A DNA stretch of 64,000 bases from the NCBI RefSeq assembly GCF_003018255.1, contig NZ_CP027440.1. The stretch is one strand, 5' to 3'. The DNA is from Escherichia coli. Its GTDB lineage: Bacteria > Pseudomonadota > Gammaproteobacteria > Enterobacterales > Enterobacteriaceae. Each line of letters begins with the position of its first letter. The stretch's first letter is position 1. Shown one piece after another: positions 32,192-37,722 of the stretch. A model generated the notes under the pieces. The model worked only from the letters and a program-made list of their open reading frames with translations, had not been told where the DNA came from and searched no databases. Position numbers and translations under genes: made by a program.

Positions 32192-33082
32192 ATGAACATG
32201 AAAAAACTGGCTACCCTGGTTTCCGCTGTTGCGCTAAGCGCCACCGTCAGTGCGAATGCGATGGCAAAAGACACCATCGCGCTGGTGGTCTCCACGCTTA
32301 ACAACCCGTTCTTTGTATCGCTGAAAGATGGCGCGCAGAAAGAGGCGGATAAACTTGGCTATAACCTGGTGGTGCTGGACTCCCAGAACAACCCGGCGAA
32401 AGAGCTGGCGAACGTGCAGGACTTAACCGTTCGCGGCACCAAAATTCTGCTGATTAACCCGACCGACTCCGACGCAGTGGGTAATGCTGTGAAGATGGCT
32501 AACCAGGCGAACATCCCGGTTATCACTCTTGACCGCCAGGCAACGAAAGGTGAAGTGGTGAGCCACATTGCTTCTGATAACGTACTGGGCGGCAAAATCG
32601 CCGGTGATTACATCGCGAAGAAAGCGGGTGAAGGTGCCAAAGTTATCGAGCTGCAAGGCATTGCCGGTACATCCGCAGCCCGTGAACGTGGCGAAGGCTT
32701 CCAGCAGGCTGTTGCTGCTCACAAGTTTAATGTTCTTGCCAGCCAGCCAGCAGATTTTGATCGCACTAAAGGTTTGAACGTAATGCAGAACCTGTTGACC
32801 GCACATCCGGATGTTCAGGCTGTATTCGCGCAGAATGATGAAATGGCGCTGGGCGCGCTGCGCGCACTGCAAACTGCCGGTAAATCGGATGTGATGGTCG
32901 TCGGATTTGACGGTACACCGGATGGCGAAAAAGCGGTGAATGATGGCAAACTAGCAGCGACTATCGCTCAGCTACCCGATCAGATTGGCGCGAAAGGCGT
33001 CGAAACCGCAGATAAAGTACTGAAAGGCGAGAAAGTTCAGGCTAAGTATCCGGTTGATCTGAAACTGGTTGTTAAGCAGTAG
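32192..33082 (+). CDS. rbsB: Periplasmic ribose-binding protein RbsB
   Basis: 296 aa from [25 protein letters not shown] (signal peptide); the track ORF begins two codons upstream at a TTG. Confidence 0.95.
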
Positions 33083-33207
33083 TTTTAATCAGGTTGTATG
33101 ACCTGATGGTGACATAAATACGGCATCGACAGATGAACGTGTAATATAAAGAAAAGCAGGGCACGCGCCACCCTAACACGGTGGCGCATTTTATGGACAT
33201 CCCGAAT

Positions 33208-34137
33208 ATGCAAAACGCAGGCAGCCTCGTTGTTCTTGGCAGCATTAATGCTGACCACATTCTTAATCTTCAATCTTTTCCTACCCCAGGCGAAACCGTA
33301 ACCGGTAACCACTATCAGGTTGCATTTGGCGGCAAAGGCGCGAATCAGGCTGTGGCTGCTGGGCGTAGCGGTGCGAATATCGCGTTTATTGCCTGTACTG
33401 GCGATGACAGCATTGGCGAGAGCGTTCGCCAGCAGCTCGCCACTGATAACATCGATATTTCTCCGGTCAGCGTGATCAAAGGCGAATCAACAGGTGTGGC
33501 GCTGATTTTTGTTAATGGCGAAGGTGAGAATGTCATTGGTATTCATGCCGGCGCTAATGCTGCCCTTTCCCCGGCGCTGGTGGAAGCGCAACGTGAGCGT
33601 ATTGCCAACGCGTCAGCATTATTAATGCAGCTGGAATCACCACTCGAAAGTGTGATGGCAGCGGCGAAAATCGCCCATCAAAATAAGACTATCGTTGCGC
33701 TTAACCCGGCTCCGGCTCGCGAACTTCCTGACGAACTGCTGGCGCTGGTGGACATTATTACGCCAAACGAAACGGAAGCAGAAAAGCTCACCGGTATTCG
33801 TGTTGAAAATGATGAAGATGCAGCGAAGGCGGCGCAGGTACTGCATGAAAAAGGTATCCGTACTGTACTGATTACTTTAGGAAGTCGTGGTGTATGGGCT
33901 AGCGTGAATGGTGAAGGTCAGCGCGTTCCTGGATTCCGGGTGCAGGCTGTCGATACCATTGCTGCCGGAGATACCTTTAACGGCGCGTTAATCACGGCGT
34001 TGCTGGAAGAAAAACCATTGCCAGAGGCGATTCGGTTTGCCCATGCTGCCGCTGCGATTGCCGTAACACGTAAAGGCGCACAACCTTCCGTACCGTGGCG
34101 TGAAGAGATCGACGCATTTTTAGACAGGCAGAGGTGA
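33208..34137 (+). CDS. rbsK: Ribokinase RbsK
   Basis: 309 aa from MQNAGSLVVLGSINADHI...; PfkB-family motifs; the track ORF begins upstream at a GTG. Confidence 0.94.
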   Translation: MQNAGSLVVLGSINADHILNLQSFPTPGETVTGNHYQVAFGGKGANQAVAAGRSGANIAFIACTGDDSIGESVRQQLATDNIDISPVSVIKGESTGVALIFVNGEGENVIGIHAGANAALSPALVEAQRERIANASALLMQLESPLESVMAAAKIAHQNKTIVALNPAPARELPDELLALVDIITPNETEAEKLTGIRVENDEDAAKAAQVLHEKGIRTVLITLGSRGVWASVNGEGQRVPGFRVQAVDTIAAGDTFNGALITALLEEKPLPEAIRFAHAAAAIAVTRKGAQPSVPWREEIDAFLDRQR

Positions 34138-34140
34138 CGC

Positions 34141-35133
34141 TTGGCTACAATGAAAGATGTTGCCCGCCTGGCGGGCGTTTCTACCTCAACAGTTTCTCAC
34201 GTTATCAATAAAGATCGCTTCGTCAGTGAAGCGATTACCGCCAAAGTTGAAGCGGCGATTAAAGAACTCAATTACGCGCCATCAGCCCTGGCGCGTAGCC
34301 TCAAACTCAATCAAACACATACCATTGGCATGTTGATCACTGCCAGTACCAATCCTTTCTATTCAGAACTGGTGCGTGGCGTTGAACGCAGCTGCTTCGA
34401 ACGCGGTTATAGTCTCGTCCTTTGCAATACCGAAGGCGATGAACAGCGGATGAATCGCAATCTGGAAACGCTGATGCAAAAACGCGTTGATGGCTTGCTG
34501 TTACTGTGCACCGAAACGCATCAACCTTCGCGTGAAATCATGCAACGTTATCCGACAGTGCCTACTGTGATGATGGACTGGGCTCCGTTCGATGGCGACA
34601 GCGATCTTATTCAGGATAACTCGTTGCTGGGCGGAGACTTAGCAACGCAATATCTGATCGATAAAGGTCATACCCGTATCGCCTGTATTACCGGTCCGCT
34701 GGATAAAACTCCGGCGCGCCTGCGGTTGGAAGGTTATCGGGCGGCGATGAAACGTGCGGGTCTCAACATTCCTGATGGCTATGAAGTCACTGGTGATTTT
34801 GAATTTAACGGCGGGTTTGACGCCATGCGCCAACTGTTATCACATCCGCTGCGTCCTCAGGCCGTCTTTACCGGAAATGACGCTATGGCTGTTGGCGTTT
34901 ACCAGGCGCTGTATCAGGCAGAGTTACAGGTTCCGCAGGATATCGCGGTGATTGGCTATGACGATATCGAACTGGCAAGCTTTATGACGCCACCATTAAC
35001 CACTATCCACCAACCGAAAGATGAACTGGGGGAACTGGCGATTGATGTACTCATCCATCGGATAACCCAGCCGACCCTTCAGCAACAACGATTACAACTT
35101 ACTCCGATTCTGATGGAACGCGGTTCGGCTTAG
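34141..35133 (+). CDS. rbsR: LacI-family ribose operon repressor RbsR
   Basis: 330-aa ORF ([24 protein letters not shown]...), N-terminal HTH; apparent TTG start; 3' end overlaps convergent hsrA. Confidence 0.93.
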
Positions 35134-36526
35134 ATTTACGCTGTCTTTTGATCAAATTATTACCATCAGTTGTTTTCAGAAGCATGAACATTGCTGCTGA
35201 AGCAACAGTAATAATGCCCATCGTGATAAACGTATAGTGGAATTGTTCGACTGTCGTTGTGCCTTCCATCCCTTCATAAACGCGAAGGACGGCCGCACTT
35301 ACAGCAACGCCTAAACTGATAGACAGTTGCTGCGTGACCGCCAGAACACTGTTACCGCTGCTGGCGTTGTCATCGGTCAGATCGGCAAGTGTGATGGTAT
35401 TCATCGCGGTAAATTGCGTCGACATAGCCATCCCTAATATAAACAACGGCAAGATCAGCATCCATATCGCCATTGCCGGTGATTGCAAAGAGAACTGAGC
35501 GATCATTAGCCCAATAATCACCGTGATCCCAACTAACGTATGGCGATAGCCCAGACGACGTAAGACTTGGGTAACCATCGATTTTGCAATAATGGAACCT
35601 AACGCTGTCGGTGCCATCATACAGCCGGCAATAAACGCCTGATAACCAAATCCTACCTGTAACATCAATGGCATAAGGAACGGTACACAACCGGTCCCCA
35701 GACGGGTTGCAATATTGCCTACGATACCGATCGAGAAAGTGCGGGTTTTAAATAAATCTAATGAAATTAATGGGTTTGGCGTGCGTCGTGCATGGAGAAT
35801 ATAGAGAAGCAGTAACCCGATGCTGGTGACAATTACCGTCAAGGCAATCCAACTGGCGACAATCTTTTCCCCGAATAGCTCTATTCCGCTTGAGAAGAGA
35901 ACAAGGCTAAGGCCAAACAGCAAAAAGCCAGTGATATCGAATCTGCGTCGTGCGGTGGTGAAATTGGGCATATGTTTGCGCGCGTAAAGAAGGCCCGCAA
36001 TACCTATGGGGATATTGATTAAAAATATCCAGTGCCAGGTTGCCCAGGTGACCAGCACGCCGCCAAGAACAGGGCCTAAAATTGGCCCCACCAGACCCGG
36101 CATGGCGACAAAATTCAATACAGGAAGAAGCTCATTACGAGGATAAGCGCGCAGTAAGGCCAGCCGAGCAACAGGCATCATCATTGCGCCGCCTATCCCC
36201 TGAATAACCCGGAAGACAACCAGCTGTGGTAGCGAGTTAGAAAGTGCGCAGGCCAGAGAACCCAACGTGAACAGACTCACGGCAAGAGTAAATATGCGAC
36301 GCGTACCGAAGCGATCGGCTAGCCATCCGCTTACCGGAATAAGCATCGCCACCGTCAGCGTATAACTGATGATGGCTGATTGCATCGCGAGAGGAGAACG
36401 ATTAAGGCTATGAGCGATTGCGGGTAAGGCGGTATTCAGAATAGTGGCATCAAGTGCCTGCATGAAGAAGGCCATCGCCGCGATCCACGGCAAACCCGCC
36501 ATACTGCGCTTCTTTTTATCGCTCAT
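35099..36526 (-). CDS. hsrA: MFS transporter HsrA (YieO)
   Basis: 475-aa, roughly 14-TM drug/H+ antiporter-like ORF at the expected K-12 position. Confidence 0.88.
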
Positions 36527-36548
36527 TCAATGTCCTGTTATCGGGGTG

Positions 36549-37241
36549 TCACTTATCAGGTGAGCGTAGCAGCGCCTGACAAGCTTTAAATGCCGCGTCG
36601 CCATCGCTTTGGATAATCGCGTCAACAATCGCCTGGTGCAGATCCAGCTTTATCACTGTGTCGCTGGTAATTGACGTGAAGTAAGTGTGATAAACCGAAT
36701 GGAAGAGCGAGGCGAATGAGGTCAAAAACGGATTGGCGCTCATTTCATAGATATGCTCATGCCAGGCCATATCGACCTCAATCCAGCGTTCACGGCGAAA
36801 GTTCTCTTTTAATGCCACCATTTCGGTCATTAACGTATTGAGATGCGCCTTCTGTTCCGCGGTGCCAACCATTGCTGCCAGTAGGCAAGCTTGCGGCTCC
36901 AGACAGATACGCATAACCAGAAAGTGATCGATGACCTGATGAAAGTTCTCTTCTGTCATCCACCAGGTAAGCAATTCCTGATCAAGAAAATTCCAGTTTG
37001 ATTGTGGCATGACCCGGGTACCAATTCGCGGTCGCGGTAAAACCATCCCTTTTGCCGTTAACGTTTTGACCGCTTCGCGTACCGCTGTACGACTCACTCC
37101 AAATTGCTCGCCCAGCTCAATCTCACCAGGCAAAATGGTGCCGGGTTCATATTCACCTTTTAAGATGCGTTGCGCCAGCTTCTCAGCCAGAACATACGAA
37201 AGGTTTTTCTGTGCAGCTAACTGTTGTGCGCTTAAAGGCAT
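36549..37241 (-). CDS. yieP: GntR/FadR-family transcriptional regulator YieP
   Basis: 230-aa ORF with N-terminal GntR-type HTH (GEQFGVSRTAVREAV). Confidence 0.88.
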   Translation of the reverse strand: MPLSAQQLAAQKNLSYVLAEKLAQRILKGEYEPGTILPGEIELGEQFGVSRTAVREAVKTLTAKGMVLPRPRIGTRVMPQSNWNFLDQELLTWWMTEENFHQVIDHFLVMRICLEPQACLLAAMVGTAEQKAHLNTLMTEMVALKENFRRERWIEVDMAWHEHIYEMSANPFLTSFASLFHSVYHTYFTSITSDTVIKLDLHQAIVDAIIQSDGDAAFKACQALLRSPDK

Positions 37242-37393
37242 TACTAATCTTCCTTTTTCTTTTTATTCCTCCTTAGTATGCCACCAGGAAGTGTGATTAC
37301 GGTTGCAAAAACGGCAAATTGCTTGTTTTATGGCACATTAACGGGGTTTTTGCTGAAAAAATGCGCGGTCAGAAAATTATTTTAAATTTCCTC

Positions 37394-37421
37394 TTGTCAG
37401 GCCGGAATAACTCCCTATAAT
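37394..37421 (+). promoter_or_regulatory. rrn P1 promoter
   Basis: TTGTCA (37394-37399), 16-bp spacer, TATAAT (37416-37421), followed by a GC-rich discriminator (GCGCC); A/T-rich UP-element-like DNA upstream. Confidence 0.8.
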
Positions 37422-37512
37422 GCGCCACCACTGACACGGAACAACGGCAAACACGCCGCCGGGTTAGCGGGGTTCTCCTGAGAATTCCGGCAGAGAAAGC
37501 AAAAACAAATGC

Positions 37513-37540
37513 TTGACTCTGTAGCGGGAAAGCGTATTAT
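37513..37540 (+). promoter_or_regulatory. rrn P2 promoter
   Basis: TTGACT (37513-37518), 16-bp spacer, TATTAT (37535-37540), about 120 bp downstream of P1. Confidence 0.75.
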
Positions 37541-37722
37541 GCACACCCCGCGCCGCTGAGAAAAAAGCGAAGCGGCACTGCTCTTTAACAATTTATCAGA
37601 CAATCTGTGTGGGCACTCGAAGATACGGATTCTTAACGTCGCAAGACGAAAAATGAATACCAAGTCTCAAGAGTGAACACGTAATTCATTACGAAGTTTA
37701 ATTCTTTGAGCATCAAACTTTT

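Follow-up and report, generated by a model that had tools for sequence, protein, structure and literature searches.

Two convergent genes of Escherichia coli, rbsR at the distal end of the ribose operon and hsrA in the minus-strand pair hsrA and yieP that faces it, run into each other with their coding regions: how did the two ends come to be shared, where do the two transcripts stop, and does the shared stretch serve in regulation? The locus was analysed within a window of 64,000 nucleotides of contig NZ_CP027440.1 (RefSeq assembly GCF_003018255.1), and the features discussed below are collected in Table 1. Positions published for MG1655 were converted to window positions with an offset of 3,904,086, obtained from the flanking sequences given in the Term-seq table.

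Table 1. Features at and around the rbsR–hsrA junction, in window coordinates.
Feature	Position	Strand	Details and source
rbsB	32192–33082	+	ORF list, RefSeq
rbsK	33208–34137	+	ORF list, RefSeq
rbsR CDS, ribose operon repressor, LacI family	34141–35133	+	330 aa, TTG start, TAG stop; ORF and RefSeq
Published Rho termination region	34837 (MG1655 3938923)	-	Antisense to rbsR, 262 nt past the hsrA stop (PMC7815308)
C>G stretch of untranslated hsrA-strand RNA	34859–34978	-	Candidate rut-like, inferred; upstream of the Rho region
hsrA (= yieO) CDS, DHA2-type MFS transporter	35099–36526	-	475 aa; PGAP label 'mdtD'
hsrA stop TAA	35099–35101	-	From rbsR Leu-Thr codons (C-TTA-CT)
HsrA lineage-specific C-terminal extension, residues 466–475	35102–35131	-	Antisense to the last rbsR codons
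p19-captured 22-bp RNase III duplex, 2-nt overhangs	35111–35134	35113–35134 (+), 35111–35132 (-)	PMC7373196 Table S3
rbsR stop TAG	35131–35133	+	Sequence
yieP CDS, FadR/GntR-family regulator	36549–37241	-	First gene of its operon; transcript crosses the overlap
16S rRNA gene	from ~37721		Beyond yieP

The 35-bp overlap of convergent rbsR and hsrA described in the initial annotation is confirmed by the ORF list, the sequence, and RefSeq in two genomes. The shared segment spans 35099–35133 (35 nt, tail to tail), and RefSeq/PGAP draws identical boundaries in the E. coli genomes DETEC-S792 and J53, the latter a K-12 derivative in which rbsR (2442–3434, plus strand) and 'mdtD' (= hsrA; 3400–4827, minus strand) again have 35 nt in common. 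Of 5426 complete E. coli genomes, 5415 contain a 901-nt piece of the locus and 5413 a 101-nt piece with the junction at its centre, the latter with at least 99% identity in 4455. On entering rbsR, the hsrA frame meets its first stop at 35099–35101, and the other two frames stop short of rbsR. A run of 35 nt to the next antisense stop is ordinary by chance; the unusual part is that the two coding ends abut or overlap in all of the 80 species sampled. The overlap itself is real, ordinary and already known, and equals the reference annotation. At the other end of the gene, the TTG start of rbsR (34141–34143) lies 3 nt past the rbsK stop, both here and in J53, and the next ATG is found 9 nt downstream, at codon 4.

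Both partners are genuine and conserved genes, as judged from profile matches and from synteny kept in the 80 species. RbsR matches the NCBIfam equivalog model NF007743 from end to end (694.7 bits), and its match to Pfam Peripla_BP_3 extends to residue 328 of 329 scanned. In HsrA, which is encoded by the second gene of the yieP-hsrA operon (PMC11340327), Pfam MFS_1 covers residues 17–406, and NCBIfam NF007799 aligns only with residues 13–465; therefore, the overlap encodes only a non-homologous tail past the last hydrophobic segment. PGAP names the gene hsrA/yieO 'mdtD: multidrug transporter subunit MdtD', because HsrA narrowly passes NF007799, a 'subfamily' model (458.6 bits against a cut-off of 426). 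The mdtD gene proper is a member of the mdtABCD-baeSR operon. Identity of hsrA with MdtD (an orthologue of yegB/mdtD) was rejected, the gene being located between yieP and rbsR with no mdtABC context.

The history of the junction was followed in 80 Enterobacteriaceae loci, one genome per species, with overlap lengths computed from the first in-frame stop. The two genes are convergent in every one of the 80 species, and their ends lie at most 3 nt apart and overlap by at most 53 bp. The 35-bp overlap is the state of 34 species (in Escherichia, Salmonella, Citrobacter, Intestinirhabdus, Enterobacter, and Leclercia), and a 4-bp overlap that of 26; the remainder have overlaps of 9 bp (six species, Kosakonia), 53 bp (five, Lelliottia and Huaxiibacter) or 24 bp (one), or a gap of 2–3 nt (eight, Kluyvera and Phytobacter). 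Apparent overlaps of 40, 79, and 124 nt proved to be tblastn alignments running through the true stop, all three being actually 4 bp. HsrA occurs in short forms of 461–467 residues and long forms of 475–477 residues. RbsR has 330 residues nearly everywhere, the exceptions being 10 species with the 35-bp overlap, where it has 332, and the Lelliottia group, where it has 336. All 34 species of the 35-bp group close rbsR with TAG, whereas those with the 4-bp overlap mostly use TAA; the hsrA stop in the 35-bp group is TAA, except for TGA in two species. Read in the hsrA sense, the short form ends with ...CAC AAA GCT TAA and the long form with ...CAT AAA CCT AAA CCG ... GAG TAA, a net difference of -1 nt. 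One sampled record labelled 'Chryseobacterium sp. 18061' (L035, CACSKA010000004.1) has an rbsR-hsrA locus of enterobacterial type that hardly differs from the one in 'Citrobacter sp. 18056' (L027), and is probably mislabelled or contaminated.

Based on this survey, the overlap is best explained as a by-product of drift in the stop codons. The junction would have lacked a spacer ever since the sampled Enterobacteriaceae shared an ancestor, and termination would be factor-dependent, inside the neighbouring gene; we give this reading a probability of about 0.8. Its starting point would be a 4-bp overlap, TTAA or CTAG, in which the two stop codons have two bases in common. A net loss of 1 nt within or beside this tetranucleotide would have left rbsR with a stop (TAG) while shifting the hsrA frame, in which the old stop would no longer be read. 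With the frame shifted off its old stop, HsrA would have become longer by ~10 residues, translated antisense through the end of rbsR up to the TAA that arises from the Leu-Thr codons (CTT/CTC ACT). A frame change at the shared stop followed by extension to the first stop of the new frame, the mark of 3' extension in overlapping pairs, is what the two forms display. The model of Kingsford et al. (2007), as PMC3887535 cites it, likewise explains the overlap lengths of convergent genes by random 3' extension to the next stop. The five Lelliottia and Huaxiibacter loci appear to have gone one step further, both genes having been extended into each other: there the rbsR TAG is mutated too, RbsR gains six residues, and the resulting overlap of 53 bp is exactly that predicted for E. 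coli upon loss of the rbsR stop.

In a midpoint-rooted neighbour-joining tree of both proteins, Buttiauxella, Franconibacter, Siccibacter, Kosakonia, and Phytobacter, all in the short state, branch deep. On this basis we infer an ancestral short state and either one origin or two for the extension, between which the tree is too weak to choose. Since the 35-bp state forms two separate clades in this tree, either one gain with a reversion or two parallel deletions would account for it, and the lack of an established single origin counts to some extent against the drift reading, as does the possibility that the zero-spacer arrangement, found in 80/80 species, is itself under selection.

A further part of the drift reading concerns which of the two genes sets the shared sequence. 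Within the overlap, the codon positions of rbsR and hsrA are paired in the register third with second, second with third, and first with first, so that any change synonymous in one gene is non-synonymous in the other. Among 35 sequences with the 35-bp overlap (the 34 species representatives and the window), the mean column entropy is 0.61 at third, 0.17 at first, and 0.26 at second positions of the rbsR codons. Seven of 11 RbsR residues in the overlap are invariant, compared with one of 11 in the HsrA tail; the remaining RbsR residues vary conservatively save at one site, and 10 of the 11 tail positions are variable. RbsR is thus, from these substitution patterns, the constrained partner, while the HsrA tail varies freely and lies outside the family profile. 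Under the drift reading, RbsR would dictate the common sequence, and the tail would be a poorly constrained cytoplasmic appendage.

One set of sites speaks against an entirely passive overlap. With the stop-forming Leu counted, four of the seven rbsR synonymous sites in the overlap have an entropy of 0.32 or less, as compared with 10% of those outside it: CTY (the hsrA stop), ACT (the HsrA terminal Glu), a CTG, and a TCG. The Leu codon that provides the hsrA stop is CTT or CTC in all 35 sequences with the 35-bp overlap versus 18 of 41 species with short HsrA. These conserved sites, which are at odds with a pure by-product, hint at some selection on the position of the HsrA stop or on the tail; yet overall the extra constraint on rbsR synonymous sites within the overlap is not significant (Mann-Whitney p = 0.12, calculated from species that are not independent).

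As to the transcripts, the remark in the initial annotation that no intergenic terminator separates the two genes is borne out: intergenic DNA is lacking altogether, and no terminator-like hairpin occurs at the junction on either strand. With neither room for a terminator nor a hairpin, both transcripts would be expected to end inside the opposite gene. Peters et al., in 2012, reportedly described Rho-dependent termination of operons without an intrinsic terminator, as well as the suppression of antisense transcription by Rho. On the hsrA strand, the published Rho region at 34837 is bicyclomycin-sensitive, with a Rho score of 2.78 and p = 7.6e-6 (Adams et al. 2021, PMC7815308 Supplementary file 2), and according to these data the yieP-hsrA transcript would reach a Rho-dependent end ~260 nt into antisense rbsR. 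Between +141 and +220 downstream of the hsrA stop, the RNA of this strand is modestly enriched in C over G, with a C/G ratio of up to 1.59.

On the plus strand, Term-seq located a 3' end after rbsB (33192, score 84,576), a weak one inside rbsR (34239, score 865), and a Rho region at 34301 (all PMC7815308). From these early rbsR sites (34239 and 34301) to rrnC, the tables of Adams et al. contain no plus-strand 3' end or Rho region (PMC7815308), and in the SMRT-Cappable-seq supplements, where a 3' end of the rbs transcript past rbsR was sought, the genes are not mentioned. Because of the strong 3' end after rbsB and the early ends in rbsR, little rbs transcription should arrive at the junction in the published conditions; those rbs transcripts that do arrive may be terminated by Rho inside antisense hsrA. 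A canonical intrinsic terminator, GCGCCACC-loop-GGTGGCGC followed by ATTTTAT, is found between rbsB and rbsK (33165–33194, plus strand), and its 3' end at 33192, with the score of 84,576, indicates strong attenuation ahead of rbsK-rbsR. A perfect palindromic hairpin, ATCGCTTCGTCAGTGAAGCGAT, is also found ~75–95 nt into rbsR (34214–34239), with the Term-seq 3' end at 34239 just after it; this hairpin also has a terminator-like score when the minus strand is read.

If the two transcripts end inside opposite genes, the rbsR and hsrA mRNAs are complementary over at least 35 nt. When both are made, they would pair along this stretch and yield low-level dsRNA cleaved by RNase III. Such RNA is on record: the duplex listed as 'hsrA rbsR' is perfectly paired and was captured with 158 and 232 reads, equal to 1.85 and 2.72 per million (Huang et al. 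2020, PMC7373196 Table S3), and both of its strands match the window exactly, within the overlap. The pair is also among the 165 convergent excludons of MG1655 reported with ExcludonFinder (PMC12288877), an excludome for which the transcripts of a pair had to overlap in 50% or more of the 58 transcriptomes (PMC12288877). In purely descriptive terms, these published data make rbsR-hsrA a convergent excludon. The initial annotation had proposed possible transcriptional interference or antisense effects; of this, published data bear out the molecular level, in the form of overlapping RNA and RNase III products, with weak signals (about 2–3 reads per million).

The most serious rival to drift is that the pair is a functional convergent excludon, in which selection keeps the spacer-less junction and transcription of rbs and of yieP-hsrA is antagonistic via polymerase collision and RNase III, ribose catabolism being thereby coupled to the expression of HsrA and YieP. 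The excludome entry, the RNase III-type 22-bp duplex within the overlap, the hsrA-strand transcript extending ~260 nt antisense into rbsR before its Rho-dependent end, and the abutting or overlapping arrangement in 80/80 species are all in keeping with it. The first of these is nearly automatic, since fully transcribed overlapping coding regions must give overlapping RNAs, and the dsRNA reads are low in a dataset in which most genes give some (87% of genes yield at least one read per million; PMC7373196). Moreover, most rbs transcription in the published conditions stops behind rbsB or in the early part of rbsR, the overlap length drifts from -3 to +53 nt across species, and no expression phenotype is reported for the pair. 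Taken together, we consider a functional excludon unlikely, and any regulatory effect of the overlap is probably small. We hold it slightly less likely still that the spacer-less junction was selected specifically because ribose-induced read-through from rbs lowers yieP-hsrA, or the reverse, or, in a weaker variant, that the CTY-ACT codons were selected to hold the HsrA stop and its terminal Glu. A selected excludon, if it existed, would connect the YieP regulon and the HsrA transporter with sugar catabolism.

Far less probable is a cryptic bidirectional intrinsic terminator, in or beside the coding overlap, that stops both transcripts. A small palindrome, GAACGCGGTTC, does lie inside the overlap, and a longer imperfect hairpin at 35156–35215, but both lack a subsequent U-tract, whichever strand is read. 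A terminator pattern scan and an inverted-repeat search found nothing above background at or near the junction on either strand; the junction strands fold no better than shuffled sequences (z = -0.65 and -0.27 for single-sequence folds); and the palindrome is not conserved, an alifold of 35 species with column-shuffle controls returning no conserved consensus structure at the junction (z ~0 on both strands). Nor is there a Term-seq 3' end at this place in those tabs of Adams et al. that contain rbsR rows (PMC7815308). The elements of a bidirectional intrinsic terminator, namely a G+C-rich hairpin with an A-tract upstream and a U-tract downstream, were thus looked for at the junction and are lacking there. 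A scan of 33000–37700 for known RNA families returned only a sub-threshold match to Rfam Ysr197 (37349–37601, plus strand; 82.3 bits, the gathering score being 167; E = 7e-19), directly ahead of the 16S gene. A near-consensus promoter is present at 37394–37421, and the Ysr197-like match, described as lying downstream of a promoter, is probably the rRNA operon leader.

The least credible alternative, that the real HsrA end lies upstream and its last 10 codons are over-extended by annotation, leaving no true coding overlap, takes support from the HsrA proteins of 41/80 species, which are shorter by ~10 residues at the C-terminus, and from the family profile alignment ending at residue 465, but is rejected as largely refuted by the sequence, given that stop codons, unlike starts, cannot be mis-called, that no in-frame hsrA stop precedes 35099–35101, that 34 species representatives and nearly all of the 5413 E. 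coli genomes agree in frame and in the place of the stop, and that the shorter homologues differ by a genuine 1-nt frame change. The proviso that homologues ending earlier would remove the overlap holds in its premise, as the 41 species with HsrA of 461–472 residues lack the 466–475 extension; the overlap nevertheless survives, because E. coli hsrA has no earlier in-frame stop and the short homologues reflect a real difference in reading frame.

For biology at large, the rbsR-hsrA overlap has little importance beyond housekeeping, and its transcript overlap, dsRNA duplex, and Rho-dependent termination are all contained in published genome-wide tables already. Its worth lies in the comparative reconstruction, which provides a clear illustration of how one net deletion can turn a 4-nt overlap of stops into a longer coding overlap, and also of which partner sets the shared sequence. 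In practice, edits, deletions, and insertions at 35099–35133 affect both rbsR and hsrA, and rbsR knock-outs lacking the last 11 codons truncate HsrA too. A natural case is found in E. coli 1162C (NZ_CP051659.1; 2259–3507 of locus L083), where the IS3-family element ISEc52 is inserted at the overlap; PGAP marks both rbsR and hsrA of this strain as pseudogenes with missing C-termini, and a single insertion has therefore disabled both genes.

Compared with known systems, the pair shares with convergent excludons (mscL-arfA of E. coli, PMC10070815; ExcludonFinder, PMC12288877) the opposite orientation of neighbours, overlapping 3' transcript ends, and RNase III substrates. In characterised excludons, however, it is long 3' UTRs that overlap, with a measured regulatory outcome, whereas at rbsR-hsrA the coding regions themselves overlap and the likeness is one of description only. 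With the Rho-terminated transcripts of Adams et al. (2021, PMC7815308), the locus has in common an untranslated antisense RNA ended in a bicyclomycin-sensitive manner a few hundred nucleotides downstream, on the hsrA strand; the published support is for this strand, and the corresponding end on the rbsR strand is inferred. The closest match is with convergent overlapping genes (Kingsford, Delcher & Salzberg 2007; Fukuda et al. 2003), as far as PMC3887535, which cites both, describes them: these are likewise two real genes on opposite strands with common 3' ends, the very common 4-nt shared-stop overlap is the ancestral form, as it would be for rbsR-hsrA, and the long form appears after a stop is lost or shifted and translation continues to the next stop inside the neighbour. 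As in overlaps whose register sets third against second positions, the older gene would keep its protein while the extension is free to vary. The rbsR-hsrA pair differs from this class in no essential respect and is a textbook instance of it, with the additional detail that the palindromic shared stop lost one nucleotide net, by which one stop was preserved (TAA to TAG) and the other removed.
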